A DNA stretch of 64,000 nucleotides from a virus (lineage: Duplodnaviria > Caudoviricetes): the IMG/VR virus record IMGVR_UViG_3300025137_005045, one strand, 5' to 3'. The stretch's first letter is position 1. Each line of letters begins with the position of its first letter. Below are positions 1 through 49,295 of the stretch, piece by piece. Position numbers and translations under genes: made by a program. The notes under the pieces are model-generated. The model did not search any database. It was not told where the DNA came from and saw only the letters and a list, made by a program, of their open reading frames with translations.

Positions 1-987
1 AGATCATTACCCAAGCAAGCTGAAGACATCACAATTAAATGGGACGGAAAACCTGCGATTGTTTTTGGACGTAATCCACAAGGACAGTTTGTGTTAACAG
101 ACAAGTCAGGATTCACTGCTAAAGGTTATAATGGATTAGCAACAAGCTCAACACAATTAGAAAAGATAATGCAACAACGTGGTGGCGAACGAGGTGATCT
201 TGTTAACATGTATAAAACTATATGGCCTGCACTAGAAGCACAAACACCAAAAGGTATGAAAGGTTATCTTATGGGTGACTTGCTATATGTAGGTACACCA
301 AAAGAAAGCAACGGTAGGTATACCTTTACTCCAAACACGGTTTCATATGCAATAGACAAAAGCACAGATCTAGGTGATCAGATAGGTAACAGTGTGGCCG
401 CATTAGCAGTACACACATTCAAAAGAAGTCCTGAAGATGCAGGACAACCATTCAGCGATATTGCACAACTAGGACAAGGTCAAGTATTAATACTAGGTCC
501 TAAAATGTCACAAACACCAACAGTTGATGTTCCAGAAGCACAATTGAGTGAACTTGAATCAACAATAAGAAAGAACTCAGATAAAATTGATGTGTTGTTT
601 AATCCAGCAAGCCTACGTGAGTATCAACTTTCTAACTTGCCGGCACTAATGAAACAGTACGGTAATCAAAAAGTTCGACAGGGTAACTTTAGTAACATGG
701 CAGAAGGCTTCTTGGAATTTGCGTCAACTAAAGTAACTCCTCAGAAATTGGAAAGATTAACTGAATTTTCCACAGACAATGCTCGTGCATTAGAACTAAC
801 GTTTACATTGTTTAGAATGATAGGTGCTATTAAAACTAAAATTGTTAGACAACTGGACAGTGCCAGTTCAGGTGTAGAAGCAAGTATAGATGGCGAACCA
901 GGACATGAAGGATATGTTACTAGTGGTATTAAACTTGTGGATAGATTACGATTTTCAAAATCAAACTTTGCAAAGAATTTACAATAA
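1..987 (+). CDS. Conserved phage protein with TIKWDGKPA motif (ligase-like nucleotidyltransferase, DUF6267-like); 5'-truncated by window edge
   Basis: Frame 1 is open from base 1 (RSLPKQAEDITIKWDGKPAIVFGRNP...), upstream of the tracked GTG at 91; KxDG motif. Confidence 0.6.
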   Translation, partial: RSLPKQAEDITIKWDGKPAIVFGRNPQGQFVLTDKSGFTAKGYNGLATSSTQLEKIMQQRGGERGDLVNMYKTIWPALEAQTPKGMKGYLMGDLLYVGTPKESNGRYTFTPNTVSYAIDKSTDLGDQIGNSVAALAVHTFKRSPEDAGQPFSDIAQLGQGQVLILGPKMSQTPTVDVPEAQLSELESTIRKNSDKIDVLFNPASLREYQLSNLPALMKQYGNQKVRQGNFSNMAEGFLEFASTKVTPQKLERLTEFSTDNARALELTFTLFRMIGAIKTKIVRQLDSASSGVEASIDGEPGHEGYVTSGIKLVDRLRFSKSNFAKNLQ

Positions 988-1553
988 TGGAATTTATTAA
1001 AGACATAACAGAATCAAGAATGTATCGTAGACTAGGACAGCTCACAGGCAAAAATGTCAATGATCTAGCTAGTCAAACATTTACACATCTATTGATGTTA
1101 AGATCATTGTACGATTTAGATAAGCCCAAGGCAGTTAAATATGCCAAAGAAATAGTAAACAATCTAAACTTCAATGGTTTTAGGGCAAGCATGCCGGATT
1201 TATATAACATGTTGGTCATGATCATAGAACAGAAAAAGTACGGTGACAGGCTGTTTAACAATTGGGAAGTAACTGTTCCTGAAATGCGTATCAAACGTGT
1301 GTTTAGAGCTATGGCACAGGGGGAACTAGATTCCAATGACTTTGCACAACTAATGTTAATCCTACAACGCAAGTTTCCAAAAATAGACGGTGACCAAATG
1401 CGTATGCGTAGAATGGTACAGGATAGTACAAAATCTACAGCATCTGATCGTAAATGGATGCACAAACGCCTTATACAGATGTCAAGAAGGATAGTTAATT
1501 CAGACTTACATCAGCTATATCAACAGGTTAGTGGAGTAAAACTAGACACATAA
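987..1553 (+). CDS. Hypothetical phage protein
   Basis: 188 aa ORF coupled to the previous stop (TAATG). Confidence 0.7.
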   Translation: MEFIKDITESRMYRRLGQLTGKNVNDLASQTFTHLLMLRSLYDLDKPKAVKYAKEIVNNLNFNGFRASMPDLYNMLVMIIEQKKYGDRLFNNWEVTVPEMRIKRVFRAMAQGELDSNDFAQLMLILQRKFPKIDGDQMRMRRMVQDSTKSTASDRKWMHKRLIQMSRRIVNSDLHQLYQQVSGVKLDT

Positions 1554-1569
1554 TTTTGGTATTTTTGAC

Positions 1570-1575
1570 TAAATA
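1570..1575 (+). promoter_or_regulatory. T4-like late promoter box TAAATA (representative of a recurrent motif)
   Basis: TAAATA lies shortly upstream of many genes: 1570, 2026, 2744, 10327, 19900, 25924, 30273, 30796, 32356, 37802, 41067, 42851, 43182, 46927, 49248, 49684; full TATAAATA at 30271, 46925, 49246. Resembles the gp55 consensus. The sequence is AT-rich, so some hits may be chance. Confidence 0.7.
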
Positions 1576-1620
1576 AGTGCAGGGAAGAAACAAATTCCCA
1601 CTTATTAGGAGAAACATATT

Positions 1621-6711: not shown

Positions 6712-6871
6712 AACACCTTGTATGGCAATATGCAGAACAGAAAATGACGTTTGTATTGGATGTGGAAGAACAACAGAAGAAATTGAAAAATGGCTCGACT
6801 ACACGGACAATGAACGTAAAATCGTAATGGAAAGATTAGAATCATCATTTGATGACCTAGACCTATTTTGA
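6692..6871 (+). CDS. DUF1289-like small Cys-rich protein (not in ORF track, 59 aa)
   Basis: Hand translation MMSQPVETPCMAICRTENDVCIGCGRTTEEIEKW...; PCxxIC...CxGCxRTxxEIxxW pattern. Confidence 0.8.
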   Translation: MMSQPVETPCMAICRTENDVCIGCGRTTEEIEKWLDYTDNERKIVMERLESSFDDLDLF

Positions 6872-8937
6872 TGCAAAAGAAAAATATCTATTTGTGGTCG
6901 AATGGGATAACCGGTAAGGTATTACCCATACTATGGTTTTCTGCAAAAACATACTACGAAGAATATGGAAATAAAATAGATCAATGGCTCTGGCACGAAC
7001 CTTTTATACACGAATGGTCAGATGAAAAACTATTTGCATATCTCAAAGACAATCCCCCTGCAATTTTTGGTTTTTCTGTATATGTTTGGAGTTACAGTAA
7101 AATAGAAAAATTGTCAAAAAAAATATCAGAGCTATATCCTGATTGTTTAATAATATGGGGAGGTCCTCAAATTTCTATCAAATATGAGAATGATTTCTTT
7201 ACTAAACATCCAGAAGTTAAGATTGTTGTACCAAGTGATGTTTATGGTGAAGCTATATTATGTCATATACTTGATAAATTTAATAACGGTAAAGTAAAAG
7301 AAGTAGACATTCCTGAAATTTATTATCAAAGAAGTGGAATGAAATTAAAGTCTAAAATACCATTTATTAAAAAAGATTTTGTATGGCCTACTAATATATT
7401 TAAAGCACAAAAAGATTATTTTCACAGTGATATGGCTAATAGTTTAGCTATATACGAATCAACTCGAGGATGTCCTTACCGATGTAGCTATTGTGATTGG
7501 GGAGGCGGAACATTTACTAAAACAATTAAAAAACCATTAGAAACAGTTTTCTCTGAGTTAGAGTTTCTTGCTGAACAAAAAGTAGAATGGTTTTATTTTG
7601 CTGATGCAAATTTTGGTATCTTTAAGGATAGAGATTTGCAGATAATAGAATATGTAGCAAAGTTAAAAGAAAGATTCGGCTATCCTCAAATAGTAAACGT
7701 TGAAAATGCTAAAAATAATTTAGAAAGAGTATTACAAATACAAGAAATATTAATAAAAAATAAATTAGCACCTTTTTATAAAATATCAATACAAAGTGTA
7801 CATGACGATGTTAAAAAAAATATTGAAAGAGTAGATATTCCATTTGAGGAACAGTACGAAAAAGTTAAAGAACTACAAAATAAGTATGATGCACCGATCT
7901 TAATTGAAACTATTTTAGGATTACCGGGAGACAGCTATAAAAAAACTTTAGAAACTATCGAAGTACTTGAAACTAAAGAAATTGGTAGCTTTAGGCCTGC
8001 GATATGGAATTTACTCCCAGAAGCTCCTGCATATGATCCTGTAGAAAGAAAAAAATGGGGGATTAAAACTAAATGGCTTAAGATAATAACTCATCCTTTT
8101 AGATTAAAAGAAAATAAAAATATCGAAGGAGTAACAGCAACATTTTGGGATAATGACGTATTACTTGAAAATGTTATAGAGACTAAATCTTATGATCGTG
8201 TTGAGTGGTGCGACATGTTTGTATTAACTATAATTAGCGGAACATCAAAATCAATTGGTTTATCTAAATTAGTTAAATATCTCAACGAGGAAGAAAATAT
8301 TCCTATTGTAGAATTTTATAATAGCTTTTATCAAAATTTAGTTAAGAAGAAAAAATTCCTTAATAAAGAGTTAAACGAACGTATAGCCGGACTTCCTACG
8401 ATGCTGTATGACTTAGTTGATCCTGATAGCCCATCTACAGATTTTGATATTAATATAGGTGACTTTTTTCCAGGTTATCTATCACCTAATTTATTTTTTA
8501 TCTTTTCAGTAATGTTACACCCTAGTCAGTTTTATAAATCCATAGAGATGTTAATGTTACCTAGAGTTAAGGATAAGGAAAAATTGCGTGATTTAACAAA
8601 CTATTTAATTAACTCTTTTATTGATATTGACTTTGATCCTAAATTTGGTAGAAAATTTAATACTCAATATAATTGGTTTGAGTACTTTGAGAACGACAAA
8701 TACCAACTTACACCATCACGATACACCTTTAAGGTGTTAGATAAACATCTTAAGTTTGTAGGTAGTATTGATTCTGAGTTTAGTGATTATCCTGAGATTG
8801 ATGATTATAATCAGAAAGTGATTCAATTCTTTTATCATAGAGCCTATAATATGCCTAGGCCAAAGTTTACCAATAATTTAGAACTAGTAAATGATCTTAA
8901 TACAAGTGCTAAATATCATTATGATCTCGTTAACTAA
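6871..8937 (+). CDS. B12-binding-domain radical SAM protein
   Basis: CPYRCSYC motif after ESTRG; N-terminal IFGFSVYVW...IIWGGPQ cobalamin-binding-like region; TGATG coupling. Confidence 0.85.
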   Translation: MQKKNIYLWSNGITGKVLPILWFSAKTYYEEYGNKIDQWLWHEPFIHEWSDEKLFAYLKDNPPAIFGFSVYVWSYSKIEKLSKKISELYPDCLIIWGGPQISIKYENDFFTKHPEVKIVVPSDVYGEAILCHILDKFNNGKVKEVDIPEIYYQRSGMKLKSKIPFIKKDFVWPTNIFKAQKDYFHSDMANSLAIYESTRGCPYRCSYCDWGGGTFTKTIKKPLETVFSELEFLAEQKVEWFYFADANFGIFKDRDLQIIEYVAKLKERFGYPQIVNVENAKNNLERVLQIQEILIKNKLAPFYKISIQSVHDDVKKNIERVDIPFEEQYEKVKELQNKYDAPILIETILGLPGDSYKKTLETIEVLETKEIGSFRPAIWNLLPEAPAYDPVERKKWGIKTKWLKIITHPFRLKENKNIEGVTATFWDNDVLLENVIETKSYDRVEWCDMFVLTIISGTSKSIGLSKLVKYLNEEENIPIVEFYNSFYQNLVKKKKFLNKELNERIAGLPTMLYDLVDPDSPSTDFDINIGDFFPGYLSPNLFFIFSVMLHPSQFYKSIEMLMLPRVKDKEKLRDLTNYLINSFIDIDFDPKFGRKFNTQYNWFEYFENDKYQLTPSRYTFKVLDKHLKFVGSIDSEFSDYPEIDDYNQKVIQFFYHRAYNMPRPKFTNNLELVNDLNTSAKYHYDLVN

Positions 8938-28065: not shown

Positions 28066-28809
28066 ATGGGATGGAAATCTAGAATACCTGATAAACCAGG
28101 ACATGTAAAATTAGCAATAGAGGCAATCGCTAAGGAAGGTTGGACTATCTTAGAAGGAGATAGGGTTCCAGCAAAAGCGTTAATAAAAGGATGTCGAACT
28201 GCTACTGATGACGACATTAGTAAACTTAGTATAACAAATTATCAAAATGCACAGCTTCAAGAAGCTCTTGGTTATGTTAAAAACTTTGACTGTGCCATCG
28301 ACGGTGGTGCTAATTACGGATTTATAGCATATCATCTAAATCATTTTAAACAAACACACGCATTTGAAATGTTCCCTCCAGTTAGAGAGTGTCTAGAAAA
28401 GAATGTTAAACATTTTGGTTTATCAAATATAAAAGTTCATCCTTGTGGGTTGGGCGAAACTGCCAAGAATGTAGCAATGCGATCTAAAGGTACTTTTGGA
28501 AATCATATACACCCCAACGGTGAAGAGGGCGATGGATCAATGAGAGTTATTACAATTGATAGCTTAAATTTAACAGCCTGCGATTTTATTAAATTAGACT
28601 GTGAAGGGTATGAACCTTTTATCATTCAGGGTGCAATCAATACTATAAGTAAATTTAAGCCAGTATTGCTTATGGAACATAAAAAATTAAGTGAATCATA
28701 CTACGGTGTTAAAGATAGAGAAGACCATATTAACTTATTAATAGATATGGGATATAAAATAATTAAACGATATAAAAAAGACATCATCATGGCACCAACA
28801 TGGCAATAG
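28066..28809 (+). CDS. FkbM-family SAM methyltransferase
   Basis: AIDGGANYG, AFE, IDSL...FIKLDCEGYE. Confidence 0.85.
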   Translation: MGWKSRIPDKPGHVKLAIEAIAKEGWTILEGDRVPAKALIKGCRTATDDDISKLSITNYQNAQLQEALGYVKNFDCAIDGGANYGFIAYHLNHFKQTHAFEMFPPVRECLEKNVKHFGLSNIKVHPCGLGETAKNVAMRSKGTFGNHIHPNGEEGDGSMRVITIDSLNLTACDFIKLDCEGYEPFIIQGAINTISKFKPVLLMEHKKLSESYYGVKDREDHINLLIDMGYKIIKRYKKDIIMAPTWQ

Positions 28810-29999
28810 ACGAAAAAATTAAAACATGCAGTTTCTGTGGTAAAACAAAAGAACAATCAAAGAAATTGATTATTGGAGAATCTGCTGGAATCTGTAACGA
28901 GTGTGTAAATTTTTGCCAAGAACTGTTAGGTCAGGATCTTGAAGAATTTGTTAAGTCAGAATTAGATCTTAATCCTATTAAAATTAAAGAACATCTTGAC
29001 AAGCATGTGATTGGTCAAGAAAATGCTAAAATAATGATCAGTGTATCTGTAGCCAATCACTATAAACGTATTGGTAAACAAACTCCTGTAGAAATTGACA
29101 AGGCCAATGTATTACTTTTAGGTCCTACCGGATGTGGTAAAACCATGCTAGCTAAAAGTATAGCAAAATATCTTGATGTTCCATTTGCTATTGCAGATGC
29201 TACAAGTTTAACAGAAGCAGGATATGTAGGAGATGATGCTGAAACTATGATTTCTAGATTGCTACATGCCTCCGGAGGAGATGTTAAAAAAGCAGAACGT
29301 GGTATTATTTTTATTGACGAACTAGATAAAATTACTCGTAAGAGCGAAAGCACAAGTATAACCAGAGATGTATCAGGTGAGGGAGTACAGCAAGCTCTCC
29401 TAAAAATAATAGAAGGTACTAAATGTCGTGTAAATCTAACAGGTAATCGTAAACATCCGTCGGGTGATATTGCAGAAGTAGATACTTCAAACATTTTGTT
29501 TATTGCTGGTGGTGCATTTGTAGGATTAGATGATCTTATTAAAAATAGAATCAGTAATACTGGAATGGGATTTGGGTCCACTCTGACAGATAATAAAGAA
29601 CAAATAGATCTTAATCAAGTATCGCCACAAGACTTACTCAAGTACGGATTAATTCCTGAGCTTGTTGGTCGATTCACTAATGTGGTTGCTCTTAAAGAAT
29701 TAGACGGAAGTCAATTAGCCCAAATATTAACAGACGTTAAAAATAATTTGGTAGATCAATACAAGTATTTGTTTGATTTGGACGGCGTTAAATTAGAAGT
29801 TACGCAAGATGCAGTTCAGGCAGTAGTTAAACGCACACAGACGCTTGAAACAGGTGCTAGAGGCCTACATACAGAACTAGAGCGTACACTTATGTCACAT
29901 ATGTATAACATATCTTCTTACAAAGATCAGGGCATAAAAACAGTGACCATTGATGAGCAACAGGTAAATAAACCAAAGATATTAACTAAAGAGGAATAA
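28800..29999 (+). CDS. clpX: ATP-dependent Clp protease ATPase ClpX
   Basis: C4 zinc finger CSFC...CNEC, Walker A GPTGCGKT, IIFIDE, RDVSGEGVQQALLK, GARGL; IGF loop reads MGF. Confidence 0.95.
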   Translation: MAIDEKIKTCSFCGKTKEQSKKLIIGESAGICNECVNFCQELLGQDLEEFVKSELDLNPIKIKEHLDKHVIGQENAKIMISVSVANHYKRIGKQTPVEIDKANVLLLGPTGCGKTMLAKSIAKYLDVPFAIADATSLTEAGYVGDDAETMISRLLHASGGDVKKAERGIIFIDELDKITRKSESTSITRDVSGEGVQQALLKIIEGTKCRVNLTGNRKHPSGDIAEVDTSNILFIAGGAFVGLDDLIKNRISNTGMGFGSTLTDNKEQIDLNQVSPQDLLKYGLIPELVGRFTNVVALKELDGSQLAQILTDVKNNLVDQYKYLFDLDGVKLEVTQDAVQAVVKRTQTLETGARGLHTELERTLMSHMYNISSYKDQGIKTVTIDEQQVNKPKILTKEE

Positions 30000-30281: not shown

Positions 30282-30346
30282 TTATACGTTGCCGCAATAG
30301 GGACGTATAAATTTAACTTGCTTAATTTAAGGAGATTTATATCATG
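30282..30346 (+). promoter_or_regulatory. ROSE-like RNA thermometer in hsp20 5' UTR
   Basis: Upstream hairpin TTATACGT/ACGTATAA (30282-30310), then UUGCU (30318-22) pairing with SD AAGGAG (30329-34) leaving the hallmark bulged G. Confidence 0.7.
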
Positions 30347-30784
30347 ACTAGACTAACGACTCTAGACCTACAACCGTTTTACAGAAACTCTGTTGGAATT
30401 GACAGAATATTTGATTCAATGATTAACAGAATAGAACACTCAAGTTCAACAACTAATTACCCACCATATAATATTATAAAAATTGACGATGACAACTATA
30501 AGATTGAAGTTGCTGTTGCTGGTTTTACCAAAGGCGAGATTGATGTGCAAACACATGACGGCCAATTAATTATTACAGGTGAGAAACAAGATCAAGAACC
30601 TAATGGGGACAACTACTTACACAGTGGTATTAGTAACCGTAAGTTTTTGAGAACGTTTGAACTAAGTGACTATGTAGAAGTAGCTTCGGCGAAAGTTAAA
30701 GACGGTATTCTCACAGTTGATTTAGAACGACATGTTCCTGAATCAATGAAACCAAAGACCATTGATATAAATTATAAATCATAG
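30344..30784 (+). CDS. Small heat-shock protein Hsp20 (IbpA-like)
   Basis: NYPPYNIIK, IEVAVAGF, YLHSGISNRKFLRTF, DGILTVDL, PKTIDI. Confidence 0.95.
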   Translation: MTRLTTLDLQPFYRNSVGIDRIFDSMINRIEHSSSTTNYPPYNIIKIDDDNYKIEVAVAGFTKGEIDVQTHDGQLIITGEKQDQEPNGDNYLHSGISNRKFLRTFELSDYVEVASAKVKDGILTVDLERHVPESMKPKTIDINYKS

Positions 30785-35165: not shown

Positions 35166-35336
35166 ATGCTTGAAGACGATGATGTTGTTATCATACACAG
35201 CTATCTAGGAGACGAGTCGTTATCGTTTGCAGGTTGGCTTAAGGTTGATCATAATATAGACGTTAACACTTTATCTTTAAAAGATCATGTTAAGTATCGT
35301 AAACTATGGACAAAAACTTCCCGCTATACTGGATAA
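35166..35336 (+). CDS. Small hypothetical protein (56 aa, not in track)
   Basis: ATG two bases after curlin stop; MLEDDDVVIIHSYLGDESLSFAGWLK... Confidence 0.4.
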   Translation: MLEDDDVVIIHSYLGDESLSFAGWLKVDHNIDVNTLSLKDHVKYRKLWTKTSRYTG

Positions 35337-36424
35337 TATCAATGTTCCTTATAATGCCAACATTGGCATGGGGAGCCGTTGGAAAAATTTCTGCTCAACA
35401 GCATGATATAGGGAGCATTACTCGTAATAAAGAAGTACTCAAAGCTGATCTTAATGCAACGATAGAAATGCTTGATGCATTAAGAACTACTCAAGGCACT
35501 CTGGAAATAACTTTTAAAGATGACACAATAGTACAAATGACCGAAAGTGCCAGGATGACTGTTGATGATTTTGTTTATGATCCAAAGAACAAAGACGCAG
35601 GCAAATTAGCAATTAAAATAGCGGCTGGTACTGCCAGATATGCATCAGGACAAATTGCTAAAGACAAACCTCAAGCAGTCAAAATTAAAACTCCAACAGC
35701 AACAATATCAGTTCGTGGTACAGACTTTACAACAACAGTGGATGAGATTGGTGCTACTACAGTTATCTTATTACCTAGTTGTCCTTTTGGATGGGCATCT
35801 ATAGAAAGAGATTGTAAAACAGGTGCCATTGATGTTGAAAGCATGGGAGGTATTGTGTATATGGATAAACCATTTCAAGCCACTCGTGTTCCTAATCTAG
35901 ATTCTAAACCAACTCCTCCGGTTATTGTTGATTTGACAGAAGAAATGATTAAGAACATTCTTATTACTGGTACACCAAAAGAGATTGAAGCTGAAGAAGT
36001 TGGCCAGACTAATGTATCTGCATTAGATAATAATGCTCTTGATCAGGACCTGTTAGAAAATGAATTAGATAAAGCAGATGAACAATTGTATGTAAACAAA
36101 CTTAATCAAAACTTGTTAGAGAGAGACTTTCTGGTTAATGTGCTAGATATTTTAAATATGCAGTTAGCACTGGCACAAGAGAGAATACTATCTGTCTCAG
36201 AGAAGAATGAACTACTGCCTGATTTTATTCCTGACCAAGGTGTGACATTTACCACCGACGGTATAATAGTTGAATTGTGCATGGACACAACAGGTAGTGA
36301 CATAAGCTGTATTACAGTTCCTGAGAATCAAGAAACTACTATACGACAGATACAAGGTGCAGTTGATATAACCAACAGAGTAATTGATAATGGTACTACC
36401 ACCATTACCACGGAACAAAACTAA
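35306..36424 (+). CDS. FecR-domain periplasmic protein
   Basis: LEITFKDDTIVQMTESARMTVDDFVYDP...GTARYASG...IKTPTATISVRGTDF. Confidence 0.88.
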   Translation: MDKNFPLYWIISMFLIMPTLAWGAVGKISAQQHDIGSITRNKEVLKADLNATIEMLDALRTTQGTLEITFKDDTIVQMTESARMTVDDFVYDPKNKDAGKLAIKIAAGTARYASGQIAKDKPQAVKIKTPTATISVRGTDFTTTVDEIGATTVILLPSCPFGWASIERDCKTGAIDVESMGGIVYMDKPFQATRVPNLDSKPTPPVIVDLTEEMIKNILITGTPKEIEAEEVGQTNVSALDNNALDQDLLENELDKADEQLYVNKLNQNLLERDFLVNVLDILNMQLALAQERILSVSEKNELLPDFIPDQGVTFTTDGIIVELCMDTTGSDISCITVPENQETTIRQIQGAVDITNRVIDNGTTTITTEQN

Positions 36425-37773
36425 TGATTAGAATATTCACACTTGTATTTTTGTTGTTAATTATATCGAATTTTTTAACAACAAAAGCAGAGGCCGCAAC
36501 CGGACTAACTTATACAACTTTAGCTTGTGGGACCTCCTGGCCCTGCTCATTGACCGGTTCCGTTTTATCTACGGGAACTATTTCCACTGGAGACGTGAAT
36601 TTAAATTGGGGCAGTGGAGAAGTATTAGACTCTGGTAGAAGTGATTATGTTGTTGTAAAACTAGAAGGCTATTTTGTAATGCCAGGAACAGCAGGAACAA
36701 GTTATTCAGTAGAATTTACAAACCAAGATGATGATGGGTCAAGAACTATAATTGGTGGAACAACAGTCATTGATGATTGGTCTGGACTACACTCACCAGC
36801 AGACAGAAGTGGTACTATTACCTTAGTTGGTGGAACAACCTATTCATATCTGAGATATATGTCAGAATGGACTGGTGGTGCTGTATTAAGACAATTTTGG
36901 AAAATAGGTTCTGGCTCTAGAACTTATATGAATTTTGCAGACGACTTTACCACAACATCAAGTCCTGTAACATCAACAACCACCGGTACAAGTAGTGGTA
37001 TAAGTTCTAGTCAAGCAACTACAGTATCAACAGCAAGAACCAGAGCAACAGCGGCAAGTGCAGGTACTAACCCAGATAATTCTGTTTATATAGATCAAGC
37101 TGGTTCCAGTAATACTGTAGTGATTCTACAAGATGGTTCATCAGGTAATCATATACGAGGCATAGGAGTTGACAATGCATCTTTAGTAGGTGACTCCAAT
37201 GACATTGAGATTAAACAGGGTGCTGGTACATCAGGTGATGGAGTTAATTTAATTGAATTAATGGTTGATGGTGATACCAATGATCTAAAACTATATCAAG
37301 ATAGATACGACGATGGAACACCAGATGCAGACCCATCCGGTGATCATATCATTAAGCTGGATGTTGATGGTAATTTAAATGATATTGAAGTAATTCAACG
37401 AGCAAATGGTACAGTTGGTCATTTTGCTGAAATAGATATAACTGGCAATTCTAGTAATTTTGATATTCTACAAAAAGGACAATCCGAAAAACAATTGTTT
37501 ATAGATGTAACTGGTAATAGCAATATAATAGATGTTACACAACGAGACAGCTCATCTAAATTTGCGGATATAAAATTAATTGGAAATGGTCATGATGTGA
37601 CTGTACTACAAAAAGGAACAGGTGCTCATAACGCAACAATTGATTTAACTTTTGGTTCAGGAGCAAGCACTGTGGATTTAACACAACAAGGTAGTTCAAA
37701 TCAATCATATTCTCTAGAACAAATTTGTTACGATGTATCCGGGTGTTCAACTACAGTAACCCAAGGATATTAA
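36424..37773 (+). CDS. Secreted PA14 domain + Ser/Thr linker + curlin-repeat protein
   Basis: Signal peptide; VNLNWGSG...VKLEGYF...DDDGSR...VIDDW...EWTGGAVLRQFW (PA14); C-terminal Q-x-G-x-x-N repeats. Confidence 0.8.
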   Translation: MIRIFTLVFLLLIISNFLTTKAEAATGLTYTTLACGTSWPCSLTGSVLSTGTISTGDVNLNWGSGEVLDSGRSDYVVVKLEGYFVMPGTAGTSYSVEFTNQDDDGSRTIIGGTTVIDDWSGLHSPADRSGTITLVGGTTYSYLRYMSEWTGGAVLRQFWKIGSGSRTYMNFADDFTTTSSPVTSTTTGTSSGISSSQATTVSTARTRATAASAGTNPDNSVYIDQAGSSNTVVILQDGSSGNHIRGIGVDNASLVGDSNDIEIKQGAGTSGDGVNLIELMVDGDTNDLKLYQDRYDDGTPDADPSGDHIIKLDVDGNLNDIEVIQRANGTVGHFAEIDITGNSSNFDILQKGQSEKQLFIDVTGNSNIIDVTQRDSSSKFADIKLIGNGHDVTVLQKGTGAHNATIDLTFGSGASTVDLTQQGSSNQSYSLEQICYDVSGCSTTVTQGY

Positions 37774-37983: not shown

Positions 37984-39030
37984 ATGACTAAAAAAACTTT
38001 AACCACTTTTTATGCTTTAGCATATCTATTAATATCAGGAGGAGTAATTGCACTTGCTAACCCTTCTTGGAATATAATATCAGTATTGATTGCTATACCA
38101 ATACTATATGGAATATTTGAAACTAAATTCTTTACGAATGATAGCAAAGTAAAATGGGCTCAGGCGTTCGTATATATTGGCAGTATAACAACATTAATAT
38201 TTCTATTTGATTGGACAATGTTATTATTAGGAATTGTTGCTGGATGGGTATTATTTGGAGTTGGAGTTAGTATATGTTTACATAAGTGGGCTTCACACAA
38301 GACATTTATACCTAAAAATAAATTTTGGAAAATAATTATTTTATTTTTTGGAACATTATGCACATTAGGTAGCACTATTAGTTGGGCCGCTGGACATAGA
38401 GAACACCATAGATTTACTGATAAGGATGGTGATCCGCATCGACCTGCAGGAAGTTTATGGCATAAAATTAAAGTTTACTTTTATTATTTCCCAACATATC
38501 CAATTAGCCCTATGTTAATTAAAGACCTTACAGTAGATCGTGATCATAAATGGTTTCATAGAAATTATTATAAAATCATATATGCGTACATATTAGGTTT
38601 GTTTTTAATTAATCCTAGCTATGCAGGATACTTTTATTTTATACCAGCGTTATATGTGTTTACAGGCATAAGTTGGGTAACAGTAATAGCACATATACCA
38701 ACCAACGGACGTTTTGGATTTAGAAAAGATACCTGGCGTATATACAAAAGTGATGATTACACATATAACAGTCACATTTGGCAATTCCTGTTAATGGGAG
38801 AAGGATATCATAATACACATCATAGTAGTCCATGGTTATGGAATAATGCTATATTACCTGGAGAGTTTGATATATCTGCAACAATTATTAAACATATAGG
38901 TATACCTAACGACAAACAACCTAAAGAATGGGATAGTGTTCGTCGAGGGCAGGAAATGTTTGATGAAATACAAGCAGAAGTTGCTAAAAATGAACAAGAC
39001 GATAGTCTAGCTGTACCAAAAGCAACATGA
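37984..39030 (+). CDS. Membrane fatty-acid desaturase (delta-9-like)
   Basis: His boxes HKWASH, HREHH, HNTHH; GEGY motif; TM helices. Confidence 0.9.
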   Translation: MTKKTLTTFYALAYLLISGGVIALANPSWNIISVLIAIPILYGIFETKFFTNDSKVKWAQAFVYIGSITTLIFLFDWTMLLLGIVAGWVLFGVGVSICLHKWASHKTFIPKNKFWKIIILFFGTLCTLGSTISWAAGHREHHRFTDKDGDPHRPAGSLWHKIKVYFYYFPTYPISPMLIKDLTVDRDHKWFHRNYYKIIYAYILGLFLINPSYAGYFYFIPALYVFTGISWVTVIAHIPTNGRFGFRKDTWRIYKSDDYTYNSHIWQFLLMGEGYHNTHHSSPWLWNNAILPGEFDISATIIKHIGIPNDKQPKEWDSVRRGQEMFDEIQAEVAKNEQDDSLAVPKAT

Positions 39031-39752
39031 GCAAACCTATTGCATTAGTAGGTCATAGAGCTGGAATGGATTTAATAATTGATATTACTGACGCTATGGG
39101 ACTAGAGATTGCTGGTATTTTTGACAAATATTTTTACGGTAATACAGACAGTACAGAAGGTATTCCTTTTATTGGAAACGAAGAAGAAATTACAGAAGAT
39201 GATATTGAAAAATATAATTTTGTTTTAACATCTAATTATGTTGGTCATGCAAAGTTAACTAATTATGAACACAATGGTGACAATCTAAGACAACGTCGTA
39301 TTAAAATATTTAAAGATCGCAATTTACCTACAGCTAATCTTATTCATCCTAATTCATATGTAGGAGATAAGACACATATTGGATCAAGTGTAATCATTGG
39401 TAGAGACTGCTATGTACGAGCTAATTCACATATAGGTGATTTTTGCTTTCTTGATAGCGGAGCGGCAGTGGCTCATGATGTACATCTTGGGGAAAATGTA
39501 ATTATAACTCCTTATAGTTTCGTTGCTGGTTTTGTTAATATTGGAAATAATGTAATGATTGGAGCAGGATCAAAGATAGTAAATGGTTATAGTGATAGAT
39601 CATTAAACATTGGAGACAATGTAAAAGTTATGGCCGGTTCAACAGTTTTTAAAGATGTGCCAGAAGGGAAATTTGTTACAAACACAGGTAAAATTTTACG
39701 AAGAATTGATTTAAAAAAGGAAAAGGAAAAGGAAAATGGATTACAAGATTAA
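39027..39752 (+). CDS. Hexapeptide-repeat sugar acetyltransferase (NeuD/PglD-like)
   Basis: N-terminal Rossmann-like region, NLIHP, left-handed beta-helix repeats, [11 protein letters not shown]. Confidence 0.85.
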
Positions 39753-41022
39753 AGACTTAGATCTAGCAGACTGGGGTCATAAAGAAATAGCTATCGCAGA
39801 AACAGAAATGCCAGGATTAATAGCTGTTAGAGAAGAATTTAAGGATCAACAACCTTTAAAAGGTGCCCGAATTACAGGTAGCTTACACATGACAGTGCAA
39901 ACTGCTGTGCTAGTTGAAACTTTGGTTGCGTTAGGTGCTAGTGTACGCTGGAGTTCATGTAATATCTTTTCAACACAAGATCATGCCGCGGCCGCATTAG
40001 CAGAACAGGGAATTCCTGTATTTGCTTGGAAAGGCGAAACAGAAGAAGAGTATTGGTGGTGTATAGAACAAACACTAGAAGGACCCGATGGATGGAAACC
40101 AAATATATTACTAGACGACGGTCACGATCTAACTGGTTATATTATGGACAATCGTCCTGACTTACTGGATGATATTGTTGGAGTAACGGAAGAAACAACT
40201 ACAGGCATACACAAGATATTGGAACGTATTGAAAAAGGTAAAATGCTATTACCAGCTATCAATGTTAATGATTCTGTAACCAAAGCTAAGTTTGATAACT
40301 TGTATGGTTGTCGTGAAAGTTTAGTTGATGGTATTAAGCGTGCCACTGATGTTATGATAGCAGGTAAGACTGCTGTGGTAGCAGGCTACGGTGATGTTGG
40401 TAAAGGTTCAGCACAGGCATTGAAAGCATTATCAGCTCAGGTATGGATAACTGAAGTAGATCCAATTTGTGCTTTACAAGCCGCAATGGAAGGATTCAAA
40501 GTAGTCACCATGGACTATGCTAAAGATAAGGCAGACATCTTCGTAACAGCAACAGGCAACGTTGATGTTATTACTAAAGAACACATGATAGCAATGAAAA
40601 ACAATGCCATTGTTTGTAATATTGGACACTTTGATAGTGAAATTGATATTGCTGGTGTAAGTGATTTTGGATGGGATGAAATTAAACCACAAGTAGATCA
40701 TGTTACCTTGCCGAGTGGTAATAAAATTATTATTCTGGCAAGAGGTAGATTGATTAATCTAGGTTGTGCCACAGGACATCCTAGTTATGTTATGTCAAAC
40801 TCATTTACTAATCAAGTGCTAGCACAAATAGAAATGTTTAATAATCCTGACAGCTATGAAACAGGCAAACTCTATCTACTACCTAAACATCTAGATGAAA
40901 AAGTAGCAGAGCTACATCTGGCTAAAGTAGGTGCAGAATTAACCCGTTTAACGGATAAACAAGCTGAATATATTTCAGTTCCTGTTAACGGCCCTTATAA
41001 GGTGGAAACATATAGATATTAA
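39736..41022 (+). CDS. ahcY: S-adenosylhomocysteine hydrolase
   Basis: [58 protein letters not shown]. Confidence 0.98.
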
Positions 41023-42820: not shown

Positions 42821-42865
42821 TAATATTGTATAATGGTAGGTGTTGAGTACTAAATAATATTACAA

Positions 42866-42909
42866 CGTTCATCCCACTGGGACGGAAGTAGGCATAAGCT
42901 GAAGGAACG
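42866..42909 (+). ncRNA. Glutamine riboswitch (glnA RNA motif)
   Basis: P1 CGTTC(42866-70)/GAACG(42905-09), P2 TCCC-act-GGGA, E-loop GACGGAAGTAGG...GAAGGAACG, short P3. Confidence 0.85.
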
Positions 42910-42934
42910 CTTCTTGTTAAAAGGAGGTAGCTTT

Positions 42935-44146: not shown

Positions 44147-44896
44147 ATGCTTACAACAATACTTTTTTTCGCTCTTTGTTATCACATACTATGGGCAACG
44201 TTCTCTATAGGTGTTCATCGACAACACATGCACACATATTGGAAATTAAATCCTGTGTTAGATCATTTATTTAGATTTATATTATGGCTAACTTGGGGAG
44301 CATTGAATTTTAAAAATGCAATACCAAATTTAGTAGCTCAGCATCGAAAACATCATGCACAAAGTGATCAATGGAACGATATTGATAATTATGATCCTGT
44401 AAGTCCTCATGTGTTTAGTTTAAGAAAGCTGTTAGATTTTTCAAAAATTCGTCCAGGAACACAATACTGGATAAATCCAAAAGATATATCAATTTGGGGT
44501 AAAGGTGCAACATCCTATGATGATTGGATAGAAAACAACATATATGTAAAATATCCTACATCAGGATTAACCATATTATGGATAATTGCTACTTTTTTAT
44601 TTGGATGGCCTGGTTTTATAATAGGTGGTTTATATAAATTTTCAATCAAAAAGGTAGTAGCATTCCATGCGGCATGTTTGCACGTAGTTGGATATAGAAC
44701 TCAAAAAGCTAAACTGTCTTCTGATAGATCGTTGAATACATTTCCGTTATCATTAGTAACTGCTGGAGAAGGATTGCATGGTAATCATCATGATAATTGT
44801 CGTCCAAGTAATTTTTCATTTCACTGGTGGGAATTAGATTTGGGTTATTGGTATGCTGTTGGTTTATCTAAGCTAAAACTTTTAAAATTTATCTAA
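44147..44896 (+). CDS. Second membrane fatty-acid desaturase
   Basis: HRQHMH, HRKHH, GEGLHGNHH, WWELDLGY. Confidence 0.85.
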   Translation: MLTTILFFALCYHILWATFSIGVHRQHMHTYWKLNPVLDHLFRFILWLTWGALNFKNAIPNLVAQHRKHHAQSDQWNDIDNYDPVSPHVFSLRKLLDFSKIRPGTQYWINPKDISIWGKGATSYDDWIENNIYVKYPTSGLTILWIIATFLFGWPGFIIGGLYKFSIKKVVAFHAACLHVVGYRTQKAKLSSDRSLNTFPLSLVTAGEGLHGNHHDNCRPSNFSFHWWELDLGYWYAVGLSKLKLLKFI

Positions 44897-45051: not shown

Positions 45052-46272
45052 ATGGATACTTTTTTTCTTGGCATTACACTTTTTACTTTGATTGTGTTGT
45101 CACTTGTAACGATAATTATTTTTGCTCGAAGTCAACTTGTCCAATCAGGTGAAGTTAATATTACTATCAATGGCGAAAAAAATATAAAAGTGCCTGCTGG
45201 TGGAAAGTTACTACAGGCCTTAGCTGGAGAAAAATTATTTGTTCCATCAGCTTGTGGAGGTGGTGGTACTTGTGCTCAGTGTAAGGTTAAAGTTCATTCA
45301 GGAGGAGGATCCATTCTCCCAACTGAAGAAGGACATATCAGTAAACGAGATGCGTCTTGTGGAGATAGGCTGTCATGTCAGGTAGCAGTAAAGCAGGACA
45401 TGGAAATTGAAGTACCTGAGGAAGTTTTTGGAGTCAGAAAGTGGGAATGTAAAGTATTAAGTAATGATAATGTTGCTACATTTATTAAAGAATTAATTAT
45501 AGAGCTCCCCAAAGGTGAAGATGTAAATTTTAAAGCAGGTGGATATATTCAAATTGAAGCACCTAGCTATAAACTTTCATATAAGGACTTTGATATTGGG
45601 AAGGAATATCACGAGGATTGGGATAGATTTAAGATATGGGATGTTACCTCTGAGGTAAATGAACCAATTGAAAGAGCATACTCTATGGCAAATTATCCTG
45701 AAGAAAAGGGTATAGTAATGCTAAATGTTCGAATTGCAACTCCACCTCCAGGTTCATCTGGAATTCCAGCTGGAAAAATGTCTTCTTATATTTTTAATTT
45801 GAAAAAGGGTGATGCAGTTACTATATCAGGACCCTTTGGTGAGTTCTTTGCACGTGAAACCAAAAAAGAAATGATTTTTATTGGTGGAGGTGCTGGTATG
45901 GCACCAATGAGAAGTCTTATTTTTGATCAGTTTAGGAGAATAAAATCTGACCGAAAAGCATCATTCTGGTATGGAGCGAGATCGAAAAAAGAAATGTTTT
46001 ATGTCGATGATTTTGATCAGATTCAAAAAGATAATGAAAACTTTTCTTGGCATGTTGCTTTGTCCGATTCACTTCCGGAAGATAAATGGAAAGGGCATAA
46101 GGGATATATTCATAATATACTTTTTGAACAGTATTTAAAAGATCATCCAGCTCCAGAGGATTGTGAGTACTACCTATGTGGGCCACCTATAATGAATCAA
46201 TCAGTGGTTAATATGTTAATAGATCTGGGAGTCGATCGTGAAGATATTTTACTTGATGATTTTGGTGGGTAG
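45052..46272 (+). CDS. nqrF: Na+-translocating NADH:quinone oxidoreductase subunit F
   Basis: N-terminal TM; [10 protein letters not shown]...RLSCQ (2Fe-2S); RAYSMAN; [11 protein letters not shown]; YLCGPP; DDFGG end. Confidence 0.97.
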
Positions 46273-46295
46273 TTGAATATAAGGAAAAATTTAAA

Positions 46296-46550
46296 ATGAA
46301 TACAAAAGTATTAAGATTTACAGCCTCATGGTGCGAGCCATGTAAGGCATTAGCAAAAACAATTGAAGACGCTGATATTGAATTACCAATTGAAGTTATT
46401 GATATAGACAAAGAAGCCTCTAGAGCTATGAAATTTCAAATACGCTCTGTACCTACAATAGTTATTGTTGATGAGAACGGTGAGGAACTTCGACGACAAA
46501 TCGGAATGATGACATTGTCACAGTTTGAGCATTTTGTTAAAAATGTTTAG
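46296..46550 (+). CDS. Thioredoxin
   Basis: FTASWCEPCK, IRSVPT. Confidence 0.9.
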   Translation: MNTKVLRFTASWCEPCKALAKTIEDADIELPIEVIDIDKEASRAMKFQIRSVPTIVIVDENGEELRRQIGMMTLSQFEHFVKNV

Positions 46551-46726
46551 TTGCTAATCATGATAATCATTATGTTTTTTAATTAATTATATGTTATTAT
46601 TATAATAAGTAATAGCAGTAGCAACTGTTGTTACTTGAAGCAGATCTCAAATTGGACTTGTGGTAACACTCTCCAATGATTTGGTTAGCCGACTTATTAA
46701 AAAACTTTTTATAAAGGACTATTATT

Positions 46727-46798
46727 ATGTGGACTAAACCTCAAGCAACAGAAATGCGTTTTGGTTTTGAAGTAACTATGTACGTAATGAACAAGTAA
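46727..46798 (+). CDS. pqqA: Coenzyme PQQ precursor peptide PqqA (23 aa, not in track)
   Basis: MWTKPQATEMRFGFEVTMYVMNK with W-x-K-P start and E-x-x-x-Y core; AAGGA SD at 46714-18. Confidence 0.93.
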   Translation: MWTKPQATEMRFGFEVTMYVMNK

Positions 46799-46852
46799 TT
46801 GTTTGTTAGTATATAAAACTTTAAACTAGCATTACACTGTTTAAAAATTTAG

Positions 46853-46879
46853 AAAGCACTCATTTATGGGTGCTTTTTA
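46853..46879 (+). terminator. Rho-independent terminator after pqqA
   Basis: AAAGCACTC-atttat-GGGTGCTTT followed by T-run. Confidence 0.85.
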
Positions 46880-46988
46880 TTTGACCAACAAATATACATT
46901 ATATTATAATATGAGCAAGTATTCTATAAATACTTTTACTAGTTCACAAGACTAGTAATTTTTAAAAATCCCAAAAGGAGAAGAAAAA

Positions 46989-47141
46989 ATGTCAGTAGAA
47001 ACAAAAATAGACTGGAATGAAGAAGATAAAGAAGCAAAAGAAGATAAAGAAATGACAGCTAAAAAACAGAGTGAAGAATTTTCTAAATCTAAATCAGAAG
47101 AAATGGCAAGAAGAGTTGTCGCTTTTAGTGACTGCGGTTAA
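46989..47141 (+). CDS. Small charged peptide ending RRVVAFSDCG (50 aa, not in track)
   Basis: TATAAATA at 46925, AAGGAG SD at 46975-80, clean ORF. Confidence 0.6.
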   Translation: MSVETKIDWNEEDKEAKEDKEMTAKKQSEEFSKSKSEEMARRVVAFSDCG

Positions 47142-47162
47142 TATTAACAACTAGATAAAATT

Positions 47163-49214
47163 ATGCCTACAAAATTACTGACCAAGGTGTTAGTTTCACC
47201 CTGGACAGCTCTTATTACTCTCACGATCATATTGTACATAGGCGTTCAACAACCTCAATTCATTGAAAGTGTTAAGTTAAGATACTTTGATACCTTAATC
47301 ACAAGCCAACCAGAACAACAAACAACTATATCAACAGTTAACATTGACGAATCCGCATTAGAAAAATATGGACAATGGCCTTTTAGTCGTGATATCTACG
47401 CAGACATAATTAAGGACTTGTATGAACGTGGTGCTGGACTAGTGGTATTCAATGTGCTTATGCCTGAACAGGATAGACTGGGCAAAGATTCAGTGCTAGC
47501 TAAAACAATGGAAGAATATCCAGTTGTACTTCCGAACTATGGTAGTGATAAAACAAAGAATATGCCACGTAATCCCGGTGCTGTTTCGATAGGTGACCCT
47601 GAAGGCAAAGTAGTGGAGTATGATGGCATTGTGGCAAGTATACCTGAACTAGAAAATCTAGCTTACGGTACAGGTATCGTAACAACATTCCCTGAAGTAG
47701 ATGGCGTTACTCGTAGATTGCCAATGGTCATTAAGAGTGGAGACACACTATATCCAAGTATGGGTTTAGAAGTTCTACGTATACTAGCAGGTGATCCTAG
47801 TTTCCAGATTAAATTCTCAGACATAGGTATTGATAAGTTACGTGTACCACAGTTTGGTATTTTATCAACAGACCCTATTGGGCGTGTATGGATTGATTAT
47901 CAGCAACGAGCTCAAGCATACAGTTTAACTGAACTTCCAAATACATTTGACAGTGGAATAGTTATTGTGGGTACGAGTGCTCCGGGTATTAGTAATCCAA
48001 TATCAACCAGTCGTGGCGAAGTATGGCCGCAAGATATGCAGGCCTCAGTGATAGCTACACTAGCAAGTGGTATCAATATCCAACGTCCAGACTGGGCATC
48101 GGGTAGCGAACTACTTGCTCTGGTAGTTTTAAGTATTATATTACTGTTTTTAACACGTTGGGTATATGTGGGCTTAGGAGTAGGAATAGTAGCACTAGCG
48201 GCGATTGTGCCGGTCACACAGTACCTTTATGCAACATATTTGTTCTTGTTTGATGCTACATTAATGTTAGGTGGATTAACAATTATACTGCTACATGCTT
48301 ACGGTGTTAAGTTTGTTTCAGAGTTCTTACAGAAGCAGGCAATCAAGAAACAGTTTGCTGGTTATGCGTCGCCGACGGTGGTTAAACTGCTACAAGAAAA
48401 TCCAGCATTAATTAAAGATGGTATGAAGCGGGAGATTTCAATTTGCTTTTCAGACTTACGTGGATTTACACCCTTAGGTGAAAGTTTTGGTGATGACGTA
48501 AAAGGGCTTACACAAATTATGAATAGCTATATGGATGCCATTACACAACCTATTCTGGATAGTAACGGTATGGTTATCAAGTATATTGGTGATGCTAGTA
48601 TGCACGTACATAATGCTCCCAAAGATGATCCTAATCATGCTAAAAGTGCTGTTCAAACAGGACTTAACATGATTGAAGCTGTTAGAAAGTTCAATGATAA
48701 AATTGTAGCCAAAGGCCGTCCACCGATAGGTATGGGTGCTGGCATCAACACCGGACTTGGATATCTAGGAGAAATGGGCTCAACAGCAAGACATAGTTAT
48801 GATGTACTAGGTGATGCTGTATCAACAGCGGCACGTATTGAAAGCAAGTGTAAAGAATACGGATGTTTATTATTGGTAGGTGAAGCCACTTACGATAAAA
48901 CCAAGGATGACTTCTTTTATCTGCAGGTAGACGAACTAGCAGTCAAAGGTAAAACAGTCGGCATTAGAATATACACAGTTTTAGATACTCCATTCAATGC
49001 GTATTACAATAGTCGAAAAAAACATCAAGAAATGTATGCATCATATCAAGCACAAGAGTTTGATAAAGCAATTAAAATGTGTCAAAATTTAAAGTCACAC
49101 TTTGAAGGACAAATGACTAGCTATTACGACATGTGGATTGAACGTTGCGAGTATATGCTAACACAAGATTTGCCTAAAGATTGGAACGGAGTCTTTATAG
49201 CAACTACCAAATAA
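47163..49214 (+). CDS. CHASE2-domain class III adenylate/guanylate cyclase
   Basis: CHASE2 (VNIDESALEKYGQWPFSR, PEVDGVTRR), three TM helices, cyclase motifs FSDLRGFT, IKYIGD, GINTG, YDVLGDAVSTAARIE. Confidence 0.95.
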   Translation: MPTKLLTKVLVSPWTALITLTIILYIGVQQPQFIESVKLRYFDTLITSQPEQQTTISTVNIDESALEKYGQWPFSRDIYADIIKDLYERGAGLVVFNVLMPEQDRLGKDSVLAKTMEEYPVVLPNYGSDKTKNMPRNPGAVSIGDPEGKVVEYDGIVASIPELENLAYGTGIVTTFPEVDGVTRRLPMVIKSGDTLYPSMGLEVLRILAGDPSFQIKFSDIGIDKLRVPQFGILSTDPIGRVWIDYQQRAQAYSLTELPNTFDSGIVIVGTSAPGISNPISTSRGEVWPQDMQASVIATLASGINIQRPDWASGSELLALVVLSIILLFLTRWVYVGLGVGIVALAAIVPVTQYLYATYLFLFDATLMLGGLTIILLHAYGVKFVSEFLQKQAIKKQFAGYASPTVVKLLQENPALIKDGMKREISICFSDLRGFTPLGESFGDDVKGLTQIMNSYMDAITQPILDSNGMVIKYIGDASMHVHNAPKDDPNHAKSAVQTGLNMIEAVRKFNDKIVAKGRPPIGMGAGINTGLGYLGEMGSTARHSYDVLGDAVSTAARIESKCKEYGCLLLVGEATYDKTKDDFFYLQVDELAVKGKTVGIRIYTVLDTPFNAYYNSRKKHQEMYASYQAQEFDKAIKMCQNLKSHFEGQMTSYYDMWIERCEYMLTQDLPKDWNGVFIATTK

Positions 49215-49295
49215 AATAGTTACATTTATGTAACATATTGTTTTATATAAATAATAATAGTGGACAACTATACTAATGCCCACAAGGAGCATTAA

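Follow-up and report, generated by a model that had tools for sequence, protein, structure and literature searches.

A predicted pqqA transcription unit with a host-like RNA leader in marine phage DNA, and its likely OM43-type methylotroph host

Viral PqqA was reported in 2020 by Coutinho et al. from viruses of Lake Baikal (Microbiome 8:163; PMC7678222). In that study the population VP_266, a freshwater virus of Methylophilaceae known from metagenomes only, carries a stand-alone pqqA that was read as an auxiliary metabolic gene supporting methanol dehydrogenase. In the Methylophilaceae themselves, a single pqqBCDEFG set is accompanied by 3-12 pqqA copies (PMC4109929), and xoxF is the most abundant transcript of OM43 (PMC5120137). 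The present analysis concerns a 64,000-nucleotide stretch of viral DNA (Caudoviricetes; IMG/VR record IMGVR_UViG_3300025137_005045), hereafter the window, in which pqqA likewise stands alone, in a phage whose predicted hosts are methylotrophs, and is given the same metabolic reading. Unlike VP_266, which was described without the anatomy of its locus, the window belongs to a marine and apparently large phage, and its pqqA sits in a cassette made of a predicted promoter, a leader and a terminator, the leader being homologous to that of an OM43-type host pqqA. The presence of pqqA in phages is already known and common; what is added here is the conservation of the cassette and the covarying leader shared with the host. 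As judged from its sequence and that of its relatives, the locus is most probably a functional auxiliary gene of host origin: a 'moron' whose single cistron is pqqA, carried by a large marine phage of OM43-type Methylophilaceae.

The closest bacterial counterparts are the orphan pqqA genes of Methylophilaceae (PMC4109929), which encode the same type of peptide; the window peptide differs by one residue from the copies of two OM43-type genomes (L343 and L353). At the nucleotide level, the best OM43-type host copy is identical at 68 of the 72 nt of the ORF (94%). The leader-bearing first copy of the OM43-type tandem pair is an especially close counterpart, with the same Shine-Dalgarno sequence and the same hairpin, located 39-45 nt 5' of the ATG in the hosts. 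The monocistronic layout closed by a terminator is also that of the OM43-type orphan genes. The phage copy is nevertheless distinguished from them by an additional 5' hairpin, a different -10 region, compensatory substitutions in the mid and outer stems of the shared hairpin, an apical stem shortened to 3 pairs, and its occurrence as a single gene instead of a tandem pair. Cultured methylophages constitute the third point of comparison. Intact ORFs of 23-24 codons, each with a Shine-Dalgarno sequence, are found in Venkman (MT375522), MEP301 (MW452941), MEP401 and MEP402 (OP830906/7), P19250A (KX815270) and Melnitz (MZ577095-98), and the encoded peptides are 77-96% identical to that of the window. 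Unlike the window copy, these genes are located in different genome contexts and phage families and are devoid of the OM43-type leader hairpin.

The pqqA coding sequence extends from 46727 to 46798 on the plus strand (23 codons and a stop) and is preceded by the Shine-Dalgarno sequence AAGGA at 46714-46718 (+), 8 nt 5' of the ATG. An initial annotation, made from the letters of the window, had pointed out this 23-residue ORF with its ribosome-binding site, identified it as PqqA and proposed a comparison with PqqA profiles. The ORF and peptide are as it described them, and the score of the peptide exceeds the curated cut-off of both available profiles, with 43.6 bits for Pfam PF08042 (cut-off 21.1 bits) and 39.3 bits for NCBIfam TIGR02107 (cut-off 20 bits). 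The translated ORF contains E15-V-T-M-Y19, corresponding to the Glu-X-X-X-Tyr crosslink motif (Glu15-X3-Tyr19). In PqqA, this Glu/Tyr pair provides the two residues that are crosslinked on the way to PQQ. By profile scores and motif, the window peptide can be considered a bona fide PqqA. The same annotation had noted that pqqB-E are missing. Indeed, TBLASTN searches of the window, itself a part of a larger phage genome, with HMM-verified PqqB, PqqC, PqqD and PqqE of Methylophilaceae returned no hit at E < 1. The window pqqA is therefore not linked to a pqqBCDE operon within these 64 kb, and such a linkage is not an obligatory feature of PqqA because Methylophilaceae have many orphan pqqA copies. 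No methanol dehydrogenase gene was detected among the window ORFs scanned, and no SoxYZ-like carrier gene in the window.

The gene was further described as forming its own transcription unit with a downstream terminator, and the surrounding signals are in agreement with both statements. On the 5' side, the -10 region inferred from the sequence (46592-46606, +) consists of an extended -10 element, TG-t-TATTAT (46592-46600), overlapping a TATAAT box (46601-46606), so that the pqqA promoter is a predicted extended -10 match; transcription would start at about 46607, at the foot of the first leader hairpin. A TGnTAT-type motif is also conserved among the cassette relatives, which are 15 metagenome loci retrieved with a 20-mer of the leader. 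On the 3' side, a predicted intrinsic terminator (46850-46882, +; z = -4.9) combines a 13-pair stem (46850-46879) with a U-rich run reaching to about 46882. Its GC core (46856-46873), in which 46856-46862 pairs with 46867-46873, is extended by A/U pairs; the cassette relatives retain the element with a different loop. This terminator was found by a purpose-written script and was missed by a simple consensus scanner; no Rfam family matches the region. Directly after it, a promoter with 11/12 consensus matches, TTGACC-N18-TATAAT (46881-46910, +), is predicted to serve the next unit, composed of orf50 and a CHASE2 cyclase gene. Its equivalent in the cassette relatives is TTGACT-N17-TATAAT. By its position, this predicted promoter delimits the pqqA unit on its 3' side.

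Upstream of the -10 region, an AT-rich block that is conserved in the 15 cassette relatives contains a Fur-box-like 19-mer (46556-46574, +) matching the E. coli Fur consensus at 16/19 positions. Two matches to this consensus with three mismatches or fewer are found in the window, versus 0.11 expected. An actual Fur box was considered at this position but not retained, the agreement falling to about 13/19 in most cassette relatives and only the ATAATGAT half being kept in hosts. The block also contains an ATGAT(A/T)ATC core that recurs 5' of host pqqA genes and of other viral ones, and 46556-46574 is possibly the site of a regulator. The octamers ATGATTTT, TAATGATT and AAAATCAT are the commonest ones between 60 and 260 nt 5' of host and viral pqqA (loci L007-L246 and L342-L353). 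The 8-mer motif is present in 34/109 host and 40/118 viral upstream regions, versus 2-5 in shuffled sequences, and may represent a shared regulator site or a promoter element.

The 126-nt leader of pqqA is predicted to fold into two hairpins with a free energy of -30.5 kcal/mol (z = -3.65), a stability that none of 200 shuffled sequences equalled. Hairpin 1 (46606-46637, +; 14 pairs and a 4-nt loop) is slightly larger than the 12-bp hairpin initially placed at 46607-46636. The second stem, initially located at about 46651-46677, coincides exactly with the mid stem of hairpin 2, a composite structure (46641-46683, +) made of a lower stem (46641-46646/46678-46683), a mid stem (46651-46656/46672-46677) and an apical stem (46660-46662/46667-46669). 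With initiation from the extended -10 at 46592-46600, the transcript would begin at about 46607 and hairpin 1 would be the 5'-terminal structure of the mRNA; this hairpin probably sits at the extreme 5' end of the pqqA messenger. It is kept in all nine distinct cassette variants, with 9-14 pairs and the same AAGUAAU anchor, despite indels in its 3' arm. Within the same nine variants, hairpin 2 is paired in 100% of the cells and its variation is limited to A-U to G-U changes, the compensatory changes described below stemming from the comparison of host and phage.

Neither blastn-short nor nhmmer detected homologues of the leader outside the cassette group, and it took a structure-aware pattern and a covariance model to reveal those of the hosts. 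The hairpin 2 pattern matches in 13 of 361 genomes of the host family, and the reversed control gave no match. Twelve of these 13 genomes, all of 1.2-1.4 Mb and of OM43 type, have the hairpin 39-45 nt 5' of a pqqA start codon. The thirteenth match comes from a genome of 2.3 Mb, is not followed by pqqA and was discarded as a likely chance hit. The OM43-type genomes (L342-L353; for example G001:C13:7095-7355) contain a tandem pqqA pair about 200 nt apart and a third copy elsewhere, and the leader hairpin precedes only the first gene of the pair. A -10-like box is found in these hosts 8-12 nt 5' of the hairpin, which therefore would head the host transcript too.

A covariance analysis of the leader, proposed in the initial annotation, was carried out on a joint alignment of 21 distinct host and phage sequences and came out in favor of hairpin 2. 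In this alignment 94.2% of the cells are paired, and six pairs are altered on both sides, a number matched by 2 of 500 shuffled alignments. The covariation score (0.229 versus 0.134) was reached by none of them, and sliding the partners reduced pairing to 15-68%. From host to phage, the mid stem changes from G-C to A-U at two positions and the outer stem from U-A to C-G; the apical stems covary freely among hosts, and the single-stranded motifs flanking the hairpin are invariant in host and phage. These data indicate that hairpin 2 and the leader of one chromosomal pqqA copy in OM43-type genomes are homologous, and the pqqA leader of the phage is, on this comparison, host-derived. A folded RNA leader common to OM43-type hosts and a phage lineage seems to be undescribed so far.

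This conservation raises the question of whether the RNA, rather than the peptide, could be the active part. The leader and the short ORF would then serve, as a decoy or sponge, to capture a host factor that normally controls the host pqqA mRNA, be it an RNase, an sRNA or an RNA-binding regulator, and the peptide would be secondary. A hairpin maintained by covariation between host and phage, its invariant flanking motifs and the fact that no known Rfam family matches the leader would fit such a role. The amino acids, including the Glu and Tyr codons, are by contrast under strong purifying selection while synonymous sites vary freely, and most viral pqqA copies lack the leader, which the covariance model recovered at about 7 of 100 viral loci without finding it in any cultured phage; a decoy function is for these reasons very improbable. 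According to another proposal, the hairpin would be a cis-regulatory leader RNA through which a cellular signal or factor adjusts the stability or translation of the pqqA mRNA; by copying it, the phage would plug its own precursor gene into the host control of PQQ synthesis, or compete with that control. This proposal is tentative and, on balance, rather doubtful.

The relationship with OM43-type bacteria is also visible in the peptide. Among 120 genome matches, its C-terminal type occurs almost only in Methylophilaceae, the family suggested as host from the outset, and the leader hairpin precedes pqqA in 12 small genomes of this same family. The candidate OM43-type hosts each encode one PqqE above cut-off and three pqqA copies. 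Together with the near identity of the ORF, these similarities support the prediction that the phage infects OM43-type Methylophilaceae, and the host assignment appears sound.

Such a resemblance to host DNA could also arise from a chimeric assembly in which host and phage sequences were joined at pqqA, a possibility that the initial annotation had itself raised as fatal to its interpretation. The host-like class of the sequence is the only feature pointing in this direction. The junctions are spanned by several assemblies obtained from different samples: L328, assembled separately, is 92.7% identical over positions 46343-49215 of the window, and L339, L334 and L042 are syntenic with the window across the same junctions. 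Because independent assemblies bridge the same points, a host-phage chimera is very unlikely, and of the explanations weighed here it is the one deserving the least credit. The composition leads to the same verdict, with an even GC content of 0.35 around pqqA and phage genes on both sides. According to PHROG and Pfam profiles, these comprise ribonucleotide reductase, DNA ligase, exonuclease, endolysin-like, tail-spike-like and virion structural proteins on the 5' side, and a tail assembly chaperone, an endonuclease and a UDP-glucose dehydrogenase on the 3' side.

The organization of the cassette itself is conserved. Its elements follow one another in the same order in 15/15 loci (AT-rich ATGAT(A/T)ATC block, T-run, TGnTAT-type -10, hairpins 1 and 2, Shine-Dalgarno sequence, pqqA, terminator and next promoter), and the cassette is 86-92% identical among relatives, versus 72-76% for its flanks. 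In the syntenic IMG/VR relative L042, a thioredoxin gene is followed by pqqA with the same leader and then, directly, by a gene at 898-1617 (+) encoding a quinoprotein-dehydrogenase-associated SoxYZ-like carrier (TIGR04557, 197.5 bits; cut-off 140). As predicted from this profile match, the carrier is a second tie to PQQ enzymes.

Beyond the cassette group, a TBLASTN search of viral genomes with the peptide, as initially suggested, was fruitful. In GenBank phages, intact pqqA genes with a Shine-Dalgarno sequence were found in nine records of cultured methylophages (Venkman, MEP301, MEP401, MEP402, P19250A and four Melnitz records) and in one uncultured virus, the Manatee Spring podovirus. Almost all of these genes lack an annotation or are covered by a CDS called on the other strand, and pqqA is not mentioned in the papers describing Melnitz or MEP401/402. 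In Venkman and MEP301, pqqA is antisense to all neighboring genes and therefore forms a unit of its own there. In one Melnitz genome (MZ577097, approximately 76134-76208; L006 3995-4069), a 24-codon pqqA-like ORF adjoins a tRNA-Leu gene, and the GenBank entry annotates a hypothetical CDS over it on the opposite strand. In IMG/VR, a degenerate pattern retrieved at least 120 contigs with pqqA, in all of which the ORF is intact. The 106 distinct viral copies give a pS of 0.57 and a pN of 0.08, hence a pN/pS of 0.14, which becomes 0.24 once the codons that served for ascertainment are excluded. The viral copies are under purifying selection. The Glu and Tyr are invariant in 106/106 of them, both residues lying inside the codons used to find the copies. 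An SD-like motif precedes 117/117 viral and 116/116 host copies, and a terminator is present within 90 nt in 57/117 viral versus 110/116 host copies.

These figures are directly relevant to two further explanations in which pqqA would bring nothing as a gene. The first holds that the segment is a neutral passenger, host DNA (pqqA and its leader) captured recently and without benefit to the phage. It could account for the 94% identity of the ORF with OM43-type copies, for the host-like leader and for the variable position of pqqA, which differs between phage lineages and is near the cyclase gene in 2/80 cyclase loci only. It accords poorly with the intact state of the gene in several unrelated phage morphotypes and at least 120 viral contigs, with the fact that about half of the synonymous sites differ at a pN/pS of 0.14, and with a cassette better conserved than the genes flanking it. 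A recent neutral capture is consequently improbable, even if slightly less so than the RNA decoy. The second explanation considers the sequence as a patch of homology through which the phage could recombine with the host chromosome or with other phages, comparable to an attP-like site or a mosaic joint, and not as an expressed gene. Recombination could indeed be supported by 72 nt that share about 80-94% identity with several host loci, and pqqA lies near recombinase genes in some siphophages. The full ORF with start codon and Shine-Dalgarno sequence in every copy, often with a terminator, and a variation that is mainly synonymous are not expected from such a patch; in addition, the window carries genes of the lytic large-phage type, with no integrase among the ORFs scanned. 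This second explanation has a very slim chance of being correct, between those of the decoy and of the chimera.

The functional auxiliary gene remains the preferred reading, and the following sequence of events can be proposed for it. The host RNA polymerase would start at about 46607 from the predicted extended -10 and stop at the terminator, giving a transcript of approximately 270 nt. Hairpins at the 5' terminus of bacterial mRNAs are known to shield them from 5'-end-dependent decay; the 5'-terminal hairpin and the host-type leader may thus stabilize the messenger or set its level of translation. The phage PqqA would be bound by the host PqqD and crosslinked by PqqE, after which PqqB, PqqC and peptidases would complete PQQ for the XoxF methanol dehydrogenase. 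One PqqA is consumed for each PQQ made, whereas PqqB-E are reusable catalysts. When host transcription is cut by the phage takeover, the precursor would be the component that runs out, and the phage would carry only pqqA because PqqA is consumed with each PQQ while PqqB-E are reused. As the initial annotation had proposed, the extra precursor would sustain methanol oxidation during infection. Two considerations count against the idea of precursor supply. PQQ is a cofactor that is recycled, and studies of PQQ production point instead to PqqB, PqqC or PqqE as possible bottlenecks (PMC9851590).

The cyanophage psbA gene offers an analogy, since it replaces a component of fast turnover. In both cases the phage would bring only the rapidly consumed part of a host energy system and leave the rest to the host machinery. 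The molecule, the pathway and the host are unrelated, however, and the benefit of psbA has experimental support whereas that of pqqA is a proposal. If this proposal is correct, viruses of abundant marine and freshwater methylotrophs would support the methanol oxidation of their hosts by supplying the only consumable part of PQQ synthesis, with a bearing on the flow of carbon from methanol in the ocean. As pqqA is missed by gene callers, it is undercounted in surveys of viral auxiliary genes. The host-derived leader would also provide a concrete handle on the control of pqqA in streamlined methylotrophs. Finally, the phage leader constitutes a phage-specific sequence tag by which viral pqqA transcripts could be told from those of the host in metatranscriptomes. 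In RNA runs X19-X22, compared with positions 45900-47700 of the window, contigs cover only about 46723-46801 and then diverge into unlike sequence; these contigs therefore come from host or other pqqA copies.

Concerning the phage itself, no cultured phage is close to it, and the window is best assigned to a large marine phage. The label of large phage was adopted because relatives bearing the same cyclase include contigs of up to 357 kb. This gene (47163-49214, +) encodes a CHASE2 sensor fused to an adenylate/guanylate cyclase, and relatives of it are encoded by Melnitz and by at least 325 stretches of IMG/VR, some of them contigs of 100-357 kb. A classification as 'Melnitz-like myophage' was considered and abandoned, the cyclase being the only part that resembles Melnitz at the DNA level (72% nucleotide identity). 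Other segments of the window give weak matches to the ribonucleotide reductase of jumbo phages and to the UDP-glucose dehydrogenase of the pelagiphage HTVC008M and of cyanophages. A general linkage between pqqA and the cyclase was rejected as well, given the 2/80 loci mentioned above; in L247, where the closest relative of the cyclase is found, pqqA is missing upstream of it.

Several neighboring genes deserve mention in their own right. A full-length NqrF (45052-46272, +; TIGR01941, 674.6 bits, cut-off 295) stands alone, with no other nqr gene among the window ORFs scanned. It is flanked by a DesA-family desaturase-like ORF (44147-44896) and a thioredoxin gene (46296-46550), and may be the electron donor of phage desaturases. 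A second fatty-acid desaturase is encoded at 37984-39030. This gene belongs to a host-like cargo that also comprises a radical SAM protein with a sub-threshold match to a B12-binding domain (6868-8937), a ClpX-like ATPase (28800-29999), a FecR-domain protein followed by a curlin-repeat/PA14 protein (35306-37773) and an S-adenosylhomocysteine hydrolase (39736-41022). At the RNA level, a ROSE_3 thermoregulator match at 30283-30349 (+) is borderline (43.6 bits for a gathering score of 43) and may be due to chance. A glutamine riboswitch aptamer (RF01739) is predicted at 42864-42913 (+), in the auxiliary-gene region of the phage, with 60.1 bits for a gathering score of 35.
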